Shown: positions 5,509 through 15,902 of the stretch, piece after piece
Layout: each line of letters begins with the position of its first letter
Numbering within the stretch: the stretch's first letter is position 1
Assembly (NCBI GenBank): GCA_019974015.1
Contig: BMAW01101096.1
Location: forward strand, 406,909 to 435,228
Source: Nephila pilipes
Taxonomy: Eukaryota
Length of the DNA stretch: 28,320 bases
Direction: 5' to 3'
Translations under genes and position numbers: made by a program
The notes under the pieces: model-generated
What the model was told of the DNA's origin: nothing
Seen by the model: the letters and a program-made list of their open reading frames with translations, nothing else
The model's database searches: none

Positions 5509-5923
5509 ATGCTTTCGAATAAATTATACATCTTGTTGTTGGGTGCTATAGTTTTCCAAATCACCGCCATTGATGCGAGACGAAGACGTTTTAGAGAATG
5601 TCCAGAGGAGAGATTAAAAGTTCGGGAAGGTATGGCAGATGTTGTACTTACTGGTACTGTCAAGCGACTGTATAGTGGCCAAGATAATCTATATAGTGGA
5701 GAAGTTTTGGTAAAGAGGGTTGTGAAGGGGGATCATCTAAGTTCTGGCGAATCACTTCTAGTTGAAGGTTTTGGCAATGCTGAGATTTGCTCTAGTAAAG
5801 CAGTTGTGAGAGACACAAAAATATTCCTTTTGAGTCAACTAGAAACTGGAAGATTTAGACTTAATTCAAGTATGGTCAGAATCAACGCACCAAATTTGGA
5901 TAAAATAACAGCTACGGTGAAAG
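5509..5923 (+). CDS. AGRN: Agrin-like first coding exon: signal peptide plus NtA (N-terminal agrin, laminin-binding) domain; ends at a GT donor (AAAG|GTAAAATAAG), phase 1
   Basis: ORF 5509-5961 translates to [23 protein letters not shown], a hydrophobic signal peptide. It continues ...[25 protein letters not shown]...[12 protein letters not shown]...DTKIFLL...RLNSSMVRINAPNLDKI. This aligns motif-for-motif with the vertebrate agrin NtA domain ([24 protein letters not shown] ... ISGFGDPLIC ... DTRIFFV ... LMLNSSLMRITLRNLEEV). A canonical donor gtaaaataagt follows codon position 1 at 5923. Confidence 0.75.
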
Positions 5924-7651
5924 GTAAAATAAGTCTTTATTATTTAGGATACATAGCGTAATTTTTAAATCAAAGCTCATTATTGTTCAGATTAAATTTA
6001 AATGATGATTGTTTTTAAAAGAAATATGAAAAATCCCAAAAATTGTGCAAAATTCAAAAACAAATAACTTTTTAAATCTAAGGTGCATATTAGTTTTTAC
6101 TTCGAAAATTCTTGTATTTTTTTTTATTTAATGTGTTAAAATAAACCATTTAAAAGCCTAAAATTTTCAAACATATATTATACGAGAATGAAACTCTTTC
6201 CAAAATTTCAAATATTGAAAATAATCAATAAAATTAAACATTTCAGCATTGTTATATTTGAAATAATTTCATAATAATTTTTTTATATTGGAGCAAACAT
6301 TTCTATCAGTTTATTAAATCAGGTGCATGAATTTCAAATTCATGCCTTATGATTTCAATTTTTCATTTTATCAACAATGAAGTCATATTATTGTGCCGGA
6401 TTTGTTAACTAATTCATAGTATAGATTGATAAAATTATATTCAGACTTAACTTTAAAAACTTGCTATGTAACATTTAATGCAAAATTTAATTATTCGTTA
6501 CATCGCGCATTACGCATTGCAGCTTTTAAATTAATTTAATTATCAATTTTAAATTAACATATCTTTTTTTAGTACTTTAAATAGTTAATTTCCTTACATG
6601 ATTTTTTAATAACTGCAAAAAACGAAAAAAACTCTTAAAATTTATAATTTAAAATTTACATATTTCCAGATTGCTATAATTTTATAATACTTTTAATATA
6701 TATTTTAGGAGCAAATATTAATATTTTCTAAAATATATTAATTCTCTATAAGTTTTCATAAAATCTTATGTAAGTCGATATTCTTTTCATATAATTTAAT
6801 TTAATTTGTTTTTCATAATTGTACAAAAAAGTCTAATATATATTAGTATTATAATTAACTGTACCAGTAATACAATTAATTTAATCAAATTAAAATTACT
6901 TAAAAGTAAAAACTGATAATAGAGAAAATAAAGATAAAATTTTTCCATTATTCAATTCTCATAAAGAAAAAAAGGAATTATTGAAAAAATGAATCAAATT
7001 AGACAATTTATAACTTCAAAACACTCCACTGAATTGAGTATTTCGAGTGATGGTTCAAAGTGTTTATTAATTATTACGTGATGGCAGAATTAGAATAGAA
7101 AGTTAAAATGGGAATTAAAATGACTGAAATTACTTAAAATAATGTTTAAGATAAATTTATTTGAGTTTTCTAGTTTCTTTTTTCGAAATGCATTCTAAAT
7201 ACATTATATTCAATAAACCTTTAGCAGCAAACAAGTTTGTAAAATAAATTATCCTGGACATATTCCGAACATATTTGAAAGTAATACGACATCATTCGTT
7301 CAATACATTTGGTTTCTATGGTGTATTGTTTGCTTTTGAAATATATTTAATTTGGTAGATTTTAATAAATCTGAGATTCTTGTAGTTAAAATATGAAGCA
7401 TCACCATCAAATGTTAGAGAAATTTAACATTGCGAAACAAGAACTACAAATATGGATAATTTTATTCAGCACCATGTTGTTAAATAAAGGAAGTTTCAGG
7501 TTGTCGCAATAGGTACGAACGGAAATAAGAAGAAACGCCTTATCAAAAACATAAGCTGAACGAGAGTTAAATGTTTAATTACATGCTTACCTATTTTTAT
7601 ATGATAGTTTGATCATGATTTTCGCTAATCTTTTACATACATATACATACA

Positions 7652-7654
<3 letters not shown>

Positions 7655-12008: not shown

Positions 12009-12999
12009 CCTTCAACTGAATTTAGGTTTACCTGATTTGGGATTTGACAGCAAAAAAAAAGCCCTTAGTATCAATTGCCATTTTTCGCATACATTATTTA
12101 AGCTGAAAGTAAGCATAGGCAAAACTTACTTCGTAACGATGTTACTAATTATAACAATATAGTTTTTGTCTGTATAGTACTCAAGTATATTCTTCATCTT
12201 TCATATCGTTTTACCAAAAACACAAATATTGATAATTATATATTAACATTTATAAAATGACATTTTAATAATCAATCATTTTTTCTCTTTTTCTACTTAG
12301 GTGTCCCTTACAGAAGAAGACCACCAATAAACGATGGTAAATTTATTTCTGTTATTAAAAGAAGCAGATTGTGACATTATTTAACCTAATTTGATAAAGT
12401 GAAAAACGATGAGCTAATCCAGACCTAAACGGAGAATGTGACTATAAAAGATTACATAAAAACAATTTGTTTTTGTGTGATCTCTGAAATTCTAAAGTTA
12501 AATCGAAATAGTAACTTTTTACAAATGTTGCATTATGACTAATGCGTTTAGCTAAACGACTTTTTGAAAAAATTTATTTTCAAAAAAACTTACTTAGTTT
12601 TATGAAAAATAGTAGAACAATCCAAGTATTTGCATTTATTTTTGTGGCTTATTTCTCTATGTTATTGAAATGAAAAGAAAACACAATTCACTTAGATTAT
12701 TCAAGAAATATAATAACATTTTGAAACTATTTGTTATGGAAGATTAAAGAATAATATTATAAAAGTTATAACATTGTAAAAAGTTTAACCTTATTTTTAC
12801 TTAATATAACAAAATCTACTTTAATTAGAAGCTTAAGTAATGTTATCAAAGACTGTAACATTAGTTATAATTGACCATAAAAATAATATGTAACAAAAAA
12901 TTGCAATATCAATTTTCAATATTTTTGTTATCAAAGAATTTATTTTCTGTTTACACAACAATTTTTTTTTTATTTTTATGCAATTTTTATTATTTTCAG

Positions 13000-13223
13000 A
13001 ACCTTGTGAAAAGAAACACTGCAAATTCAATGGGGACTGTTTCGAAGAAAATCGCCGACCAACATGTCGCTGCCCAACTAACTGCAAGGAACATTATAAT
13101 CCTGTGTGTGCAAATGATGGTTTCACTTACAATACCGAATGTCAAATGAGGGTCGACTCCTGCCGAAAGAAGAAGAAAATTTATGTACGGCACGAAGGCC
13201 TATGCTCTCAATCAGAATTTTCA
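13000..13223 (+). CDS. AGRN: Follistatin-like / Kazal-type domain exon (first FS domain of agrin-like protein); 3' boundary uncertain
   Basis: The translation is EPCEKKHCKFNGDCFEENRRPTCRCPTNCKEHYNPVCANDGFTYNTECQMRVDSCRKKKKIYVRHEGLCS. It has 10 Cys in the follistatin-domain pattern: C..C...C..., then C.C...C, then the Kazal core PVC..DG.TY..EC......C, then H.G.C. It is preceded by a strong acceptor. The reading frame runs into TAA at 13224-13226 without an obvious in-phase GT donor. Confidence 0.6.
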
Positions 13224-15902
13224 TAAATCAGCTTAATTTTCTGCTCGATTTAAAACGGTAACGTAACAGATGCTAAATACTTATCCCTTTACAGAGAAAT
13301 GTTTACTATTTACCAGCAGTTTTGGAATTTTTAAAATAAATATATAGAAAAAGAAAATCATAAAATTCAACACTTTATTAAAATCTCAGGAAATTTTAAT
13401 AAAGATAAAATAATCATGATATACTAGACTAATTAATTTCTAAAACTATTTTAATTTTTTTAGGTAATATAAATACATTAAATAACCTTTCTCATAAGTA
13501 TGATTGATTTAGTATCATTCAATATTATTTCTTTCTAATTTCGATTCGTATAAATGAGTGAATGTGTTATTAATTAGATTGAATCGATAGATTTATAAAA
13601 GCATTCTATTTAGTACTTAGGCTCAACAAACTGTAGATTTTCCGTTGAAGTTCATAACTTTTATTTAGCACTGAACGGAACATCAGATATTTTACCTAAT
13701 TATTGACACTAATTTTTTTTTTTTTGTAAATATTCTTAGATAGTTTATTTTCTCATCAATTTATCAATCAATGAGTCAAAACCGCATCTATTTTTACCAT
13801 TTAATCCTAACAGCCAGATTTTGAATTAAACTAATTTAATAACTTTTTATTCAAATCAATGAGAAATAAGAGTTTCTTTTAAAAAAAAGCCTATTTTTTC
13901 AATATTCATTGATTTTTCAGATCTTCAATATTAGCATTTGGTAGCAATTAATGTTTCTAATGCTTTTAATTTTCTTTAACTGAACCACGTATACGAAATG
14001 CTATATCATTTTAAAAGATTCAAATTTCTCAATTTTGTAATTCAGCTTTTTCAGAAAATTTGTTGTTCAATTATTTTTATGAATAATGTCCTTTTAAAAT
14101 GGTGCCATTGTCACGTTTTTCACCTAATTCAATCCAATGAATTAATTGGAATATATAATTGATGAATAAAATTTAACTACATTTGAGATAGTTATGTAGT
14201 CTCCAGAAGTAGCAAGGTTTTTTCTTAAAATTCAATCACAAAGTTAATAGTCAAATAATTAGGCAGATTAGTCTTCAACTGAATACTCGTGTTTATCATT
14301 CTCTAGATAGAATAATCAACACATAAAATATTTATTACGTCTATTGGATCAAATCTCACGCTTCTTCTTTTAAAGAGTATCTAATAGAATTACTTATCTG
14401 AAATATTTCTAGGGTGAGTTCGAGTCAGTATCGAATCCGCATCAATGTTATCTATCGCATAATCTCTTGTCCACTATCTCCTTTTGCCTTCTAACATCTA
14501 CTATTATCTTCCTTCTATTAGTCTCCCTCTATACACTAACCTACAATCTACTATTGCTGTGCCAATATTTCTTTCCCATTATCAACTATTCAATTTATAG
14601 TAACTCTGATTTGTATAATGCATAATTTGAGTTGTTAAAATTAATCAATGTTTTAGAAATGTCCATAAGGACAGTTAAAGGGAAGTAGGCATCCTAACAC
14701 TACAGTTACACTAGTTATACGACTGTGATAAAATTATTTCTTTTCTTAAAAAATATTACTGGATTTGCCTCATTTTAACCTATTATTTCTTTTTCCAAAA
14801 CATAAACACGTAGTGTTCTCTTAAAAAATTACTCAATGAATGCAATCATATTTTTTGAAGACAGTATCCTTGCATTTATATAATAACGACCTTTCGTTTT
14901 CAATAAAATGGTTCAGGTGTGTAAAATAATGTCTAGCAAGACAAAATAATTTGTTATTTTATATTTTTGTACATATAGTAACTTTATAAGAGGTATAAAA
15001 ATGTATTTTTTTATTTCGTGTAACGGATTTTATGTAAAATTGTGTAATGCATGTATAAAAATTAGTTTTTGAAATAATAAGTTCAAAAAAAACTGTTTTA
15101 TTTAGTTGCTTGTCATTTTTTAAATCAAGCTAGAGTAGCGATTTTTATTTTCCTTATTCAAAAATTTTCATGGCAAATATAAATTCAGATAAGTATTTTA
15201 AAGGAAAATCTTTATTTCTGTAAGAGAGTAATCCGTAGCTTTCAAACAAAATATACATTTTTTTTTTTCCTAGTTAGAAAGGGAAGTCTATATCAGGGAA
15301 GACATATTTTCCCTGATAAGAATTTCCTCTTCTTTAGTTCTTCTCTTTTCTATATTTCTCCCTTAGCCGCCTAATTATTAAAGTTTGAAATTTGAGTCTC
15401 ACCTCACCATTATCAATGACTATCTATTAAGAGTGTTAACCACCTTAGATATGGGCTTAAAACTTGGCCAAATAAGTAATTCCTTGATCACTAGAGATGT
15501 TTAATGGTTAGTTTTTGATCACTCAAAATAATTCTTTTAATACCAAATATTTAATTTTCCTGTCTGAAAGATTTTTGTACAACACTCCCTCTAACGCATA
15601 AGTTGCTCATGCGTCATAAACCATAAATTTCACGCGCTCACTCATACACAAATAACTCCATTCACGTAAAAAATCGTATTTGTTTAAGTGAAATTTTTTA
15701 AAATTCATTTTCATTTTGTTTTTCAATATTTTTGAATATTGTCATTCAATGAAATTTGAATCATTGTGTTTGGTTTAATAAGGAAAATACTGGTGAAAAC
15801 ATGAAATAACTTTCATTCACATTCCTATCTATACATTTAAAACAGTTTTTGAACATATAGTTTCCCATTTTAGTTCTTGTTGCATTAAATTTTAGATATA
15901 TT

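Follow-up and report, generated by a model that had tools for sequence, protein, structure and literature searches.

The N-terminus of vertebrate long-N-terminus (LN) agrin, in which an NtA domain, a linker, and a first follistatin-like (FS) domain follow each other, is a described counterpart of the gene reported here. A recombinant chick NtA-Fs tandem binds laminin dose-dependently (Patel et al., PMC3439447). In chick NtA, Leu142 and Val149 in helix H3 constitute the laminin motif, and the 7-aa alternative insert EHRKLLA is located directly after it (PMC3439447). The domain has one Cys2-Cys74 bridge, and the tandem is no matrix metalloproteinase (MMP) inhibitor because NtA lacks the Cys1 of TIMP (PMC3439447). 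The FS-bearing N-terminal region of agrin binds BMP2, BMP4, and TGF-beta1 (PMC2874008). Agrin has been described in Apis and Tribolium and is absent from Drosophila; chelicerates were not covered (Bányai et al. 2010, PMC2874008). Here, we analyzed a stretch of 28,320 nucleotides of contig BMAW01101096.1 from the spider Nephila pilipes (the window, to which all positions refer unless stated otherwise). A sequence-only reading had seen in it the 5′ end of a large agrin gene. We found that positions 5509-13226 on the plus strand are a complete three-exon protein-coding gene of this araneoid spider. The locus is an intact, ordinary gene and not the start of a full-length agrin gene. With good confidence, we interpret it as a complete short NtA-FS paralog gene, the product of which would be secreted and would dock onto laminin.

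The three coding exons measure 415, 36, and 227 nt, all on the plus strand. The coding part of exon 1 (5509..5923) starts with the first ATG downstream of an in-frame stop, with an A at position -3. It encodes the predicted signal peptide (aa 1-23, 5509-5577), an RRRR stretch, the NtA domain (aa 31-130 according to Pfam), and helix H3 (aa 127-138). The exon ends at the phase 1 donor AAAG|GTAAAA (5923|5924), which is conserved in Larinioides. The conserved upstream sequence (5302..5508, plus strand) is contiguous with exon 1 and is probably 5′ untranslated region (UTR) and proximal promoter; in a blastn comparison, positions 5302-5951 are 75% identical to positions 9806-10443 of a Larinioides genome locus (L003), reaching about 200 bp 5′ of the ATG. 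Intron 1 (5924..12300, 6377 nt) begins with GT at 5924-5925 and ends with AG at 12299-12300 after a polypyrimidine tract. It is followed by a 36-nt microexon (12301..12336), phase 1 at both ends, that encodes (G)VPYRRRPPIND(E), the linker from helix H3 of NtA to the FS domain. Intron 2 (12337..12999, 663 nt) begins with GT at 12337-12338 and ends with a T-rich tract and AG at 12998-12999. The coding part of the last exon (13000..13226) is entered in phase 1 at the acceptor TTTTCAG|AACC (12999|13000) and encodes the FS domain up to 13205, the tail SQSEFS, and the stop. The in-frame TAA at 13224-13226 lies six codons beyond the last Cys codon (13203-13205). Between these two codons the sequence contains no GT donor; hence, a canonical splice cannot extend the frame without destroying the FS domain. 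The first AATAAA after the stop in a motif scan, a candidate poly(A) signal on the plus strand, is at 13335..13340, 109 nt downstream, and others follow at about 13377 and 13398, but AATAAA is weak evidence in an AT-rich genome.

Much of the sequence-only reading was confirmed by these results. Its two exons are real, the one (5509-5923) encoding signal peptide and full-length NtA and the other (13000-13226) a 10-Cys FS/Kazal domain; the motifs it quoted, including DTKIF and LNSSMVRI, are all present in the translation, and AAAG|GTAAAA and TTTTCAG|AACC are both phase 1 junctions as proposed. The supposed AT-rich invertebrate genome is that of a spider, with 19-46% GC in the window. It had placed the end at 13226 but overlooked that this is the last base of an in-frame TAA. 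The direct join TATVK|EPCEKK and the single intron of 7 kb had to be given up, as orthologs insert the peptide GVPYRRRPPIND and the presumed intron consists of two (5924-12300 and 12337-12999) that flank the microexon. This intron had also been called filled with transposable elements; one retrotransposon tail and two repeat copies are indeed present, but they make up only about a quarter of the 6.4 kb of intron 1.

The microexon became apparent from an alignment of the two-exon product with the closest spider proteins, which carry 12 extra residues, G[IV]PYRRRPPIxD, between NtA and FS. A six-frame motif search of the window gave a single PYRRR-type match, and this is at the microexon. The DNA around it reads ...TTTTTCTACTTAG|GTGTCCCTTACAGAAGAAGACCACCAATAAACGATG|GTAAAT, with the boundaries TTAG|GTGTCC...GATG|GTAAAT, and its inclusion turns TATVK|E into TATVK-GVPYRRRPPIND-E. 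When the resulting 225-aa product was compared with the window by tblastn, its three pieces were recovered at 100% identity. The linker peptide is present in nearly all aligned orthologs and in both cDNA-like contigs described below. Larinioides keeps the microexon and both its splice sites, and the substitutions in the microexon are mostly synonymous. Some public models of the family appear to be incomplete: those of Trichonephila clavipes and Stegodyphus end after exon 1 (150-153 aa), and Tachypleus has a 160-aa isoform X2.

The gene model agrees with transcript-like sequences of relatives. Two cDNA-like contigs, L001 (947 bp, from a metatranscriptome) and L002 (1370 bp, from Logan), contain uninterrupted open reading frames (ORFs) of 225 and 223 aa, respectively, which include the linker, stop at the matching place, and are followed by a 3′UTR. 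Aligned to the window as nucleotides, both contigs lose the match at 5926/5928 and regain it at 12998/12999, that is, at the predicted junctions. The three-exon layout is also found in the Larinioides locus, with all four splice sites conserved, and in a Uloborus locus (L004). Intron 1 is 6.4 kb long here, 19.5 kb in Larinioides, and 5.1 kb in Uloborus; intron 2 is 0.66, 11, and 2.8 kb long, respectively. The short gene of Uloborus covers 8.6 kb, and no further gene is called within 10 kb of it. The ratio of nonsynonymous to synonymous divergence (dN/dS) was 0.04, a value from the Larinioides comparison alone in which dS is saturated at 2.3; L001 was left out as indels put it out of register. 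The low ratio indicates a constrained ORF and not a decaying fragment. The short gene is thus under strong purifying selection.

Translation yields a precursor of 225 aa, from which a mature protein of about 202 aa (23 kDa, isoelectric point 9.2, 12 Cys) is predicted. The order in the precursor is signal peptide, RRRR, NtA, the basic linker VPYRRRPPIND, one FS (EGF + Kazal) domain, and the stop. In a Pfam scan, which found both NtA and Kazal matches, the joined translation matched NtA (PF03146) over model positions 1-115 of 115 with E=3.2e-21 and 75.8 bits (cutoff 25.1), Kazal_2 with 1.3e-9, and Kazal_1 with 1.7e-6. The last exon, EPCEKKHC...HEGLCSQSEFS, encodes exactly 10 Cys, all of which are invariant across the family. 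Sequence matches of the FS part in the PDB are the FS domains of follistatin, FSTL1, FSTL3, and agrin. An AlphaFold model built with 20 family members (mean predicted local distance difference test score 82.9) shows a five-strand OB-fold barrel, a helix at 127-138, and a Kazal-type alpha/beta unit. The top Foldseek ranks of this model are the chicken NtA structures 1jb3, 1pxu, 1jc7, and 3i70, with target TM scores of 0.73-0.75 and root-mean-square deviations (rmsd) of 2.3-2.5 Å; for 1jb3, the values are 0.74 and 2.3 Å. The FS domains of FSTL1 and follistatin come next, and NTR/TIMP modules rank lower.

The RRRR stretch (5578-5589, aa 24-27) immediately follows the predicted cleavage site of the signal peptide. 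Most short NtA-FS proteins keep it with slight changes, as do the long agrins of Uloborus and Centruroides. Its function might be that of a convertase site or of a site for heparan-sulfate binding, or a different one.

Compared with the vertebrate LN-agrin N-terminus (PDB 1JB3, 1PXU, and 3I70 for NtA, 8S9P for human agrin), the NtA-linker-FS1 order is the same, as the sequence-only reading had recognized: human agrin residues 30-243 align colinearly with product residues 30-220. The NtA domains are 32-33% identical, and the predicted fold is shared (TM 0.74). The cysteines C31 and C94 are conserved as the equivalents of chick Cys2 and Cys74. In helix H3, chick LRN-L142-EEVEHC-V149 aligns with spider APN-L130-DKITAT-V137, so that the NL...V motif is common to both, and the LNSS sequon is shared as well. 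N129 and L130 are kept in at least 90% of the whole family, while V137 is nearly invariant among close orthologs and variable in distant members. G74 corresponds to human Gly76, a myasthenia mutation site. The boundary of exon 1 directly follows V137-K138, which is the position of the vertebrate splice insert (EHRKLLA in chick agrin). The equivalent linker in the spider is, however, a constitutive 12-aa basic microexon product, and RRRRFRE precedes the first Cys as an extra. Human agrin NtA has two further Cys in the alignment, where the spider product has G64 and T136. A further difference lies downstream, where the spider product ends after FS1 and lacks FS2-9 and the LE (laminin-EGF), SEA, S/T, EGF, and LG (laminin-G) domains. 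Without LG and EGF domains, the short protein should not have dystroglycan, LRP4, or MuSK-type functions.

Follistatin, FSTL1/FSTL3, SPARC, and hevin share the 10-Cys FS module with a basic surface, with significant sequence and structure matches, but NtA is lacking in all of them. Follistatin binds its ligands with several FS domains and an N-terminal domain, and the latter is absent from the spider product. TIMP/NTR modules share the OB-fold, and Foldseek gave TM scores of 0.5-0.6 for N-TIMP-1, the NTR module of PCOLCE, and C345C of C3. Their identity is 11-18%, however, and the predicted mature N-terminus of the spider product is RRRRFRE-C31 and not a Cys1 that chelates the zinc of MMPs.

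From the conserved motif and the modelled fold, we infer that the protein binds laminin in basement membranes. The product would be secreted, and helix H3 of its NtA domain would dock it onto the coiled-coil long arm of laminin, with Leu130 and Val137 acting as the laminin-recognition motif known from chick Leu142/Val149. The single basic FS domain would thereby be displayed in the basement membrane. There, its role would be partner binding rather than protease inhibition, and the most plausible partner is heparan sulfate or a TGF-beta/BMP-family ligand. By analogy with the binding of BMP2, BMP4, and TGF-beta1 to agrin's N-terminal region, a growth-factor or heparan-sulfate partner appears plausible.

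Comparison of protein sequences identifies the gene as the spider ortholog of a short family annotated as agrin or agrin-like. The closest proteins are of 220-232 aa, from Larinioides, Caerostris, Oedothorax, Uloborus, Parasteatoda, and Liphistius (E down to 1e-109). The exact N. pilipes protein was absent from the protein collection searched, in which the best match was 80% identical over the full length. Identity is 70-86% to the short spider orthologs and 41-50% to the scorpion, tick, and horseshoe crab members; in the family alignments, full-length orthologs of spiders are 71-84% identical. We surveyed the family by a profile search of 1.8 billion representatives and by name look-ups. Relatives that match over the full length in one stretch (210-318 aa) occur in Limulus, Tachypleus, Ornithodoros, Halotydeus, Cordylochernes, Centruroides, and Sarcoptes in addition to the spiders. 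Spiders, scorpions, ticks, mites, a pseudoscorpion, and horseshoe crabs thus have short members, and every named family member is a chelicerate. Most members have 210-232 aa, and models in more than 10 chelicerates, from RefSeq and other sources, are mostly in this range. Examples are the proteins of Larinioides sclopetarius and Caerostris darwini (225-226 aa), "agrin" of Parasteatoda tepidariorum (232 aa), the Uloborus diversus protein (223 aa), U21-Liphistoxin-Lth1a_1 of Liphistius (A0A4Q8K6S1), the Centruroides protein (221 aa), XP_064460157.1 of Ornithodoros turicata (225 aa), and XP_013778652.1 of Limulus (230 aa). These proteins share with the N. pilipes product the length, signal peptide, RRRR, NtA, PYRRR linker, single FS domain, short tail, and stop, as well as the three exons with the 36-nt microexon wherever this was checked; no substantive difference was seen. 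The orthologs end at the matching position, and the short C-terminal tail is conserved among spiders. They are already public under the automatic names "agrin," "agrin-like," and "U21-Liphistoxin," and in the literature library searched we found no paper on the short family or on chelicerate agrin and no experimental work on any of these proteins. The family is therefore known in databases but uncharacterized.

Chelicerates also have long agrins. A search seeded with the tick long agrin revealed two with an NtA domain, of Uloborus diversus (1738 aa) and Centruroides vittatus (isoform X1, 1730 aa). In both, the signal peptide is followed by RRRR, NtA, a linker of the PY type, and FS1. Like the short protein, chelicerate long agrin has RRRR behind the signal peptide and, ahead of "PCE.(K/M).C", a linker of the PY(E/K)RR type, but it continues with further Kazal/FS and with laminin-EGF, EGF, and laminin-G domains. 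Over residues 1-220, the N. pilipes product is 39-41% identical to the N-termini of the Uloborus and Centruroides long agrins. With the models that contain NtA alone, from Oedothorax, Argiope, Trichonephila, and Caerostris, its identity is 42-52%. In Oedothorax, the NtA-only model JTE90_005567 adjoins the long agrin model JTE90_005566 on one 44.8-Mb contig; hence, the spider NtA-only models represent exon 1 of long agrin. In the tick Ornithodoros, long agrin (1456 aa) has 9 Kazal, 2 LE, and 3 LG domains, no NtA, and a hydrophobic N-terminus that resembles a transmembrane segment. Isoform X3 of the Tachypleus long agrin (1659 aa) also has a hydrophobic N-terminus and no NtA match, and none of the tick, mite, and mantis-shrimp long agrins examined has NtA. 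The linker motif occurs in long genes as well, as KPYERRRQISEKPCEKMYC in Centruroides and LPYKRRPRIQEKPCEVMFC in Tachypleus isoform X3, and FS1 of the tick long agrin is the closest match of the window FS domain (60.5 bits). The shared linker and the similarity to tick FS1 both fit a duplication of NtA, linker, and FS1.

Short and long genes are on different contigs in six chelicerate species; in Uloborus, this places the two on different chromosomes. The short and long genes are found on contigs of 139.2 and 172.9 Mb in Uloborus, 84.4 and 93.0 Mb in Parasteatoda, 1.77 and 44.8 Mb in Oedothorax, 1.82 and 2.70 Mb in Centruroides, and 36.1 and 74.6 Mb in Ornithodoros; in Tachypleus, the short gene is on a 275.9-Mb contig and the long gene on contigs of 138.5 and 196.3 Mb. 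A "split agrin," in which NtA-FS1 was split off the long gene in chelicerates, is ruled out by the NtA-bearing long agrins of Uloborus and Centruroides. As these long agrins have an NtA of their own, the short gene is an additional one, paralogous to the three coding parts at the start of long agrin (NtA, linker, and FS1). Of the features of agrin proper, a long multidomain proteoglycan of basement membranes, it has NtA, which marks the LN form as a type-II transmembrane anchor marks the SN form; an array of about 8-9 FS and two laminin-EGF domains is absent, as is the EGF/LG region, and identity favors the short proteins (70-86%) over the long agrins of the same clade (39-52%).

Precomputed PF03146 matches showed a further pattern among the listed long agrins. 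Among those of arthropods, a match was present only in chelicerates (Uloborus and Centruroides), and the listed insect, crustacean, collembolan, and millipede long agrins had none; the listed mollusc, annelid, nemertean, brachiopod, and deuterostome agrins had the match. This suggests that, among arthropods, NtA was lost outside Chelicerata or that first exons are unannotated there.

Could the exons still be the first of a full-length LN-type agrin gene, the rest of which lies beyond the window or was not recognized, as the sequence-only reading had assumed? The NtA-linker-FS1 order colinear with human agrin would fit this, and spider introns reach tens of kb, with 19.5 and 11 kb in Larinioides and a Uloborus long agrin gene that spans about 121 kb; thus, missing exons could in principle lie outside the 28-kb window. 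The TAA so close to the last FS Cys, with no GT donor before it, speaks against it, and so do the tail conserved among spiders and the orthologs and cDNA-like ORFs that stop at the same place. The preponderance of 210-232-aa models in more than 10 chelicerates points the same way. We also searched by tblastn with 13 long agrin-like or multi-Kazal proteins, including hemichordate, amphioxus, lamprey, oyster, nematode, sea urchin, and mite agrins. In the window and the Larinioides locus, these queries found only the NtA exon and the single FS exon, and no EGF or laminin-G exon. The search reached 15 kb past the stop in the window and 10 kb in the Larinioides locus, and no further agrin-like exon followed in either. 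As the genuine spider long agrin, moreover, has a different NtA (39-52% identity) on a separate contig, we regard a full-length agrin gene at this locus as very improbable. Nearer still to zero, in our estimate, is the probability of a pseudogene, a decaying partial duplicate of the agrin 5′ end. The locus does resemble a truncated copy of that end among transposon fragments, but it has an intact ORF and signal peptide, its four splice sites are intact as well as conserved across genera, dN/dS is 0.04, orthologs extend from spiders to horseshoe crabs, and expression is seen in transcriptome and metatranscriptome assemblies (L001 and L002).

If the product is accepted as a complete short protein, its role may be viewed differently. 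It might be a secreted Kazal-type protease inhibitor or venom component for which NtA is merely a carrier, as the Liphistius ortholog bears a toxin name, Kazal_1 and Kazal_2 both match, and weaker PDB sequence matches include elastase inhibitor, rhodniin, and PSTI. The domain is, however, of the FS type with an EGF-like subdomain and 10 Cys, and its best matches are agrin, follistatin, and FSTL1. The residue two positions past the second Kazal Cys, the putative P1, is Glu181, and Glu at P1 is atypical for Kazal inhibitors of trypsin, chymotrypsin, and elastase. Chelicerates that are not venomous, such as horseshoe crabs, ticks, and mites, have family members as well, and a dN/dS of 0.04 is unlike that of fast-evolving toxins. 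Together with the lack of MMP inhibition by the chick NtA-Fs tandem (PMC3439447), this makes an inhibitor or venom role improbable. A role as competitor or regulator, in which the short protein occupies the laminin-gamma NtA site without LG domains and limits the anchoring of full-length agrin, deserves somewhat more credit but is still unlikely. Both paralogs coexist in spiders and scorpions, both keep the H3 Leu/Val, RRRR, and PY(R/K)RR motifs, and the short protein lacks the C-terminal effector domains of agrin. On the other hand, the two NtA domains are only about 40% identical and may therefore have diverged in target, and the strongly conserved FS domain suggests more than a stub role.

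Several points weigh against our preferred interpretation of a secreted, laminin-docking NtA-FS paralog. The N. pilipes gene model is a prediction from the genome sequence and from proteins and cDNA-like contigs of relatives, and the signal peptide was judged by eye and from a predicted N-terminal helix. Laminin binding was deduced from two conserved residues and the fold, and the FS partner is a guess. Human Asn105, a mutation site of congenital myasthenic syndrome in NtA, is equivalent to Ser96 here. The Liphistius ortholog, which comes from a venom-gland transcriptome, bears the toxin name U21-Liphistoxin-Lth1a_1. Finally, one pseudoscorpion model (Cordylochernes) has no linker peptide; hence, skipping of the microexon, which preserves the frame, is possible as a real isoform.

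The repeats of intron 1 comprise the 5′-truncated tail of a non-LTR (long terminal repeat) retrotransposon at 8640..9956 (plus strand), a 439-aa stop-to-stop ORF with the C-terminal part of reverse transcriptase, RNase H, and a zinc-knuckle region (Pfam RNase_H 1.4e-9, zf-RVT weak at 0.02). They also comprise a copy of an interspersed repeat of about 240 bp at 8146..8384, found by self-blastn with no strand assigned, and a second, partial copy at 11911..12004. This repeat resembles a short interspersed nuclear element (SINE) or a miniature inverted-repeat transposable element (MITE). It has seven copies in the window (574-810, 3819-4056 on the minus strand, 8146-8384, 11911-12004, 22831-23086, 23222-23431, and 24363-24530) with 68-88% identity, and it is also present in the Larinioides locus. 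A degenerate mariner-like element with a broken reading frame lies at 16900-17950 on the plus strand (Transposase_1 2e-5, HTH_48 2e-4); behind it, near 18.05-18.13 kb and 18.6 kb, are microsatellites of the (TA)n/(TG)n type. Another degenerate element, Tc1/Tc3-like and likewise broken in frame, is located at 21500-22450 on the minus strand (HTH_Tnp_Tc3_2 1e-3).

Downstream of the gene, 6.5 kb past the stop, a 154-bp block at 19718-19871 is 77-80% identical to and colinear with positions 50649-50802 of the Larinioides locus, a conservation equal to that of the coding exons. An exon was rejected for this block as stops occur in all six frames, and an Rfam scan of the whole window, this block included, matched no family. 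Possible identities are a conserved regulatory element and a non-coding RNA. Just upstream of it is a local tandem duplication of about 140 bp (19341-19482 and 19478-19619, 82% identity).

The locus illustrates how a 36-nt microexon and an early stop can escape annotation: several public models of the family contain exon 1 only, and the automatic name "agrin" masks the status of a short paralog. Mechanistically, nothing is new here; the interest lies in the conserved architecture of a stand-alone "agrin head." This constrained NtA-FS protein, predicted to be secreted, would parallel, as a natural protein, the engineered chick NtA-Fs fragment that binds laminin, and its shortness would offer a simple handle on NtA-laminin binding and on FS function in an arthropod basement membrane. 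In a wider scenario, the stand-alone gene was duplicated from the agrin 5′ end before the split of horseshoe crabs and arachnids and has since been kept under constraint, possibly as an unrecognized basement-membrane component. We put this forward only tentatively, as we consider it possible but rather doubtful. If it is true, the "agrin head" might be a laminin-anchored trap or presenter of BMP/TGF-beta-type ligands or of heparan sulfate, or else a natural competitor that tunes the anchoring of full-length agrin. Judging from the long agrins listed, chelicerates, with two NtA genes, would then be the sole arthropod group in which NtA-laminin biology can be studied.

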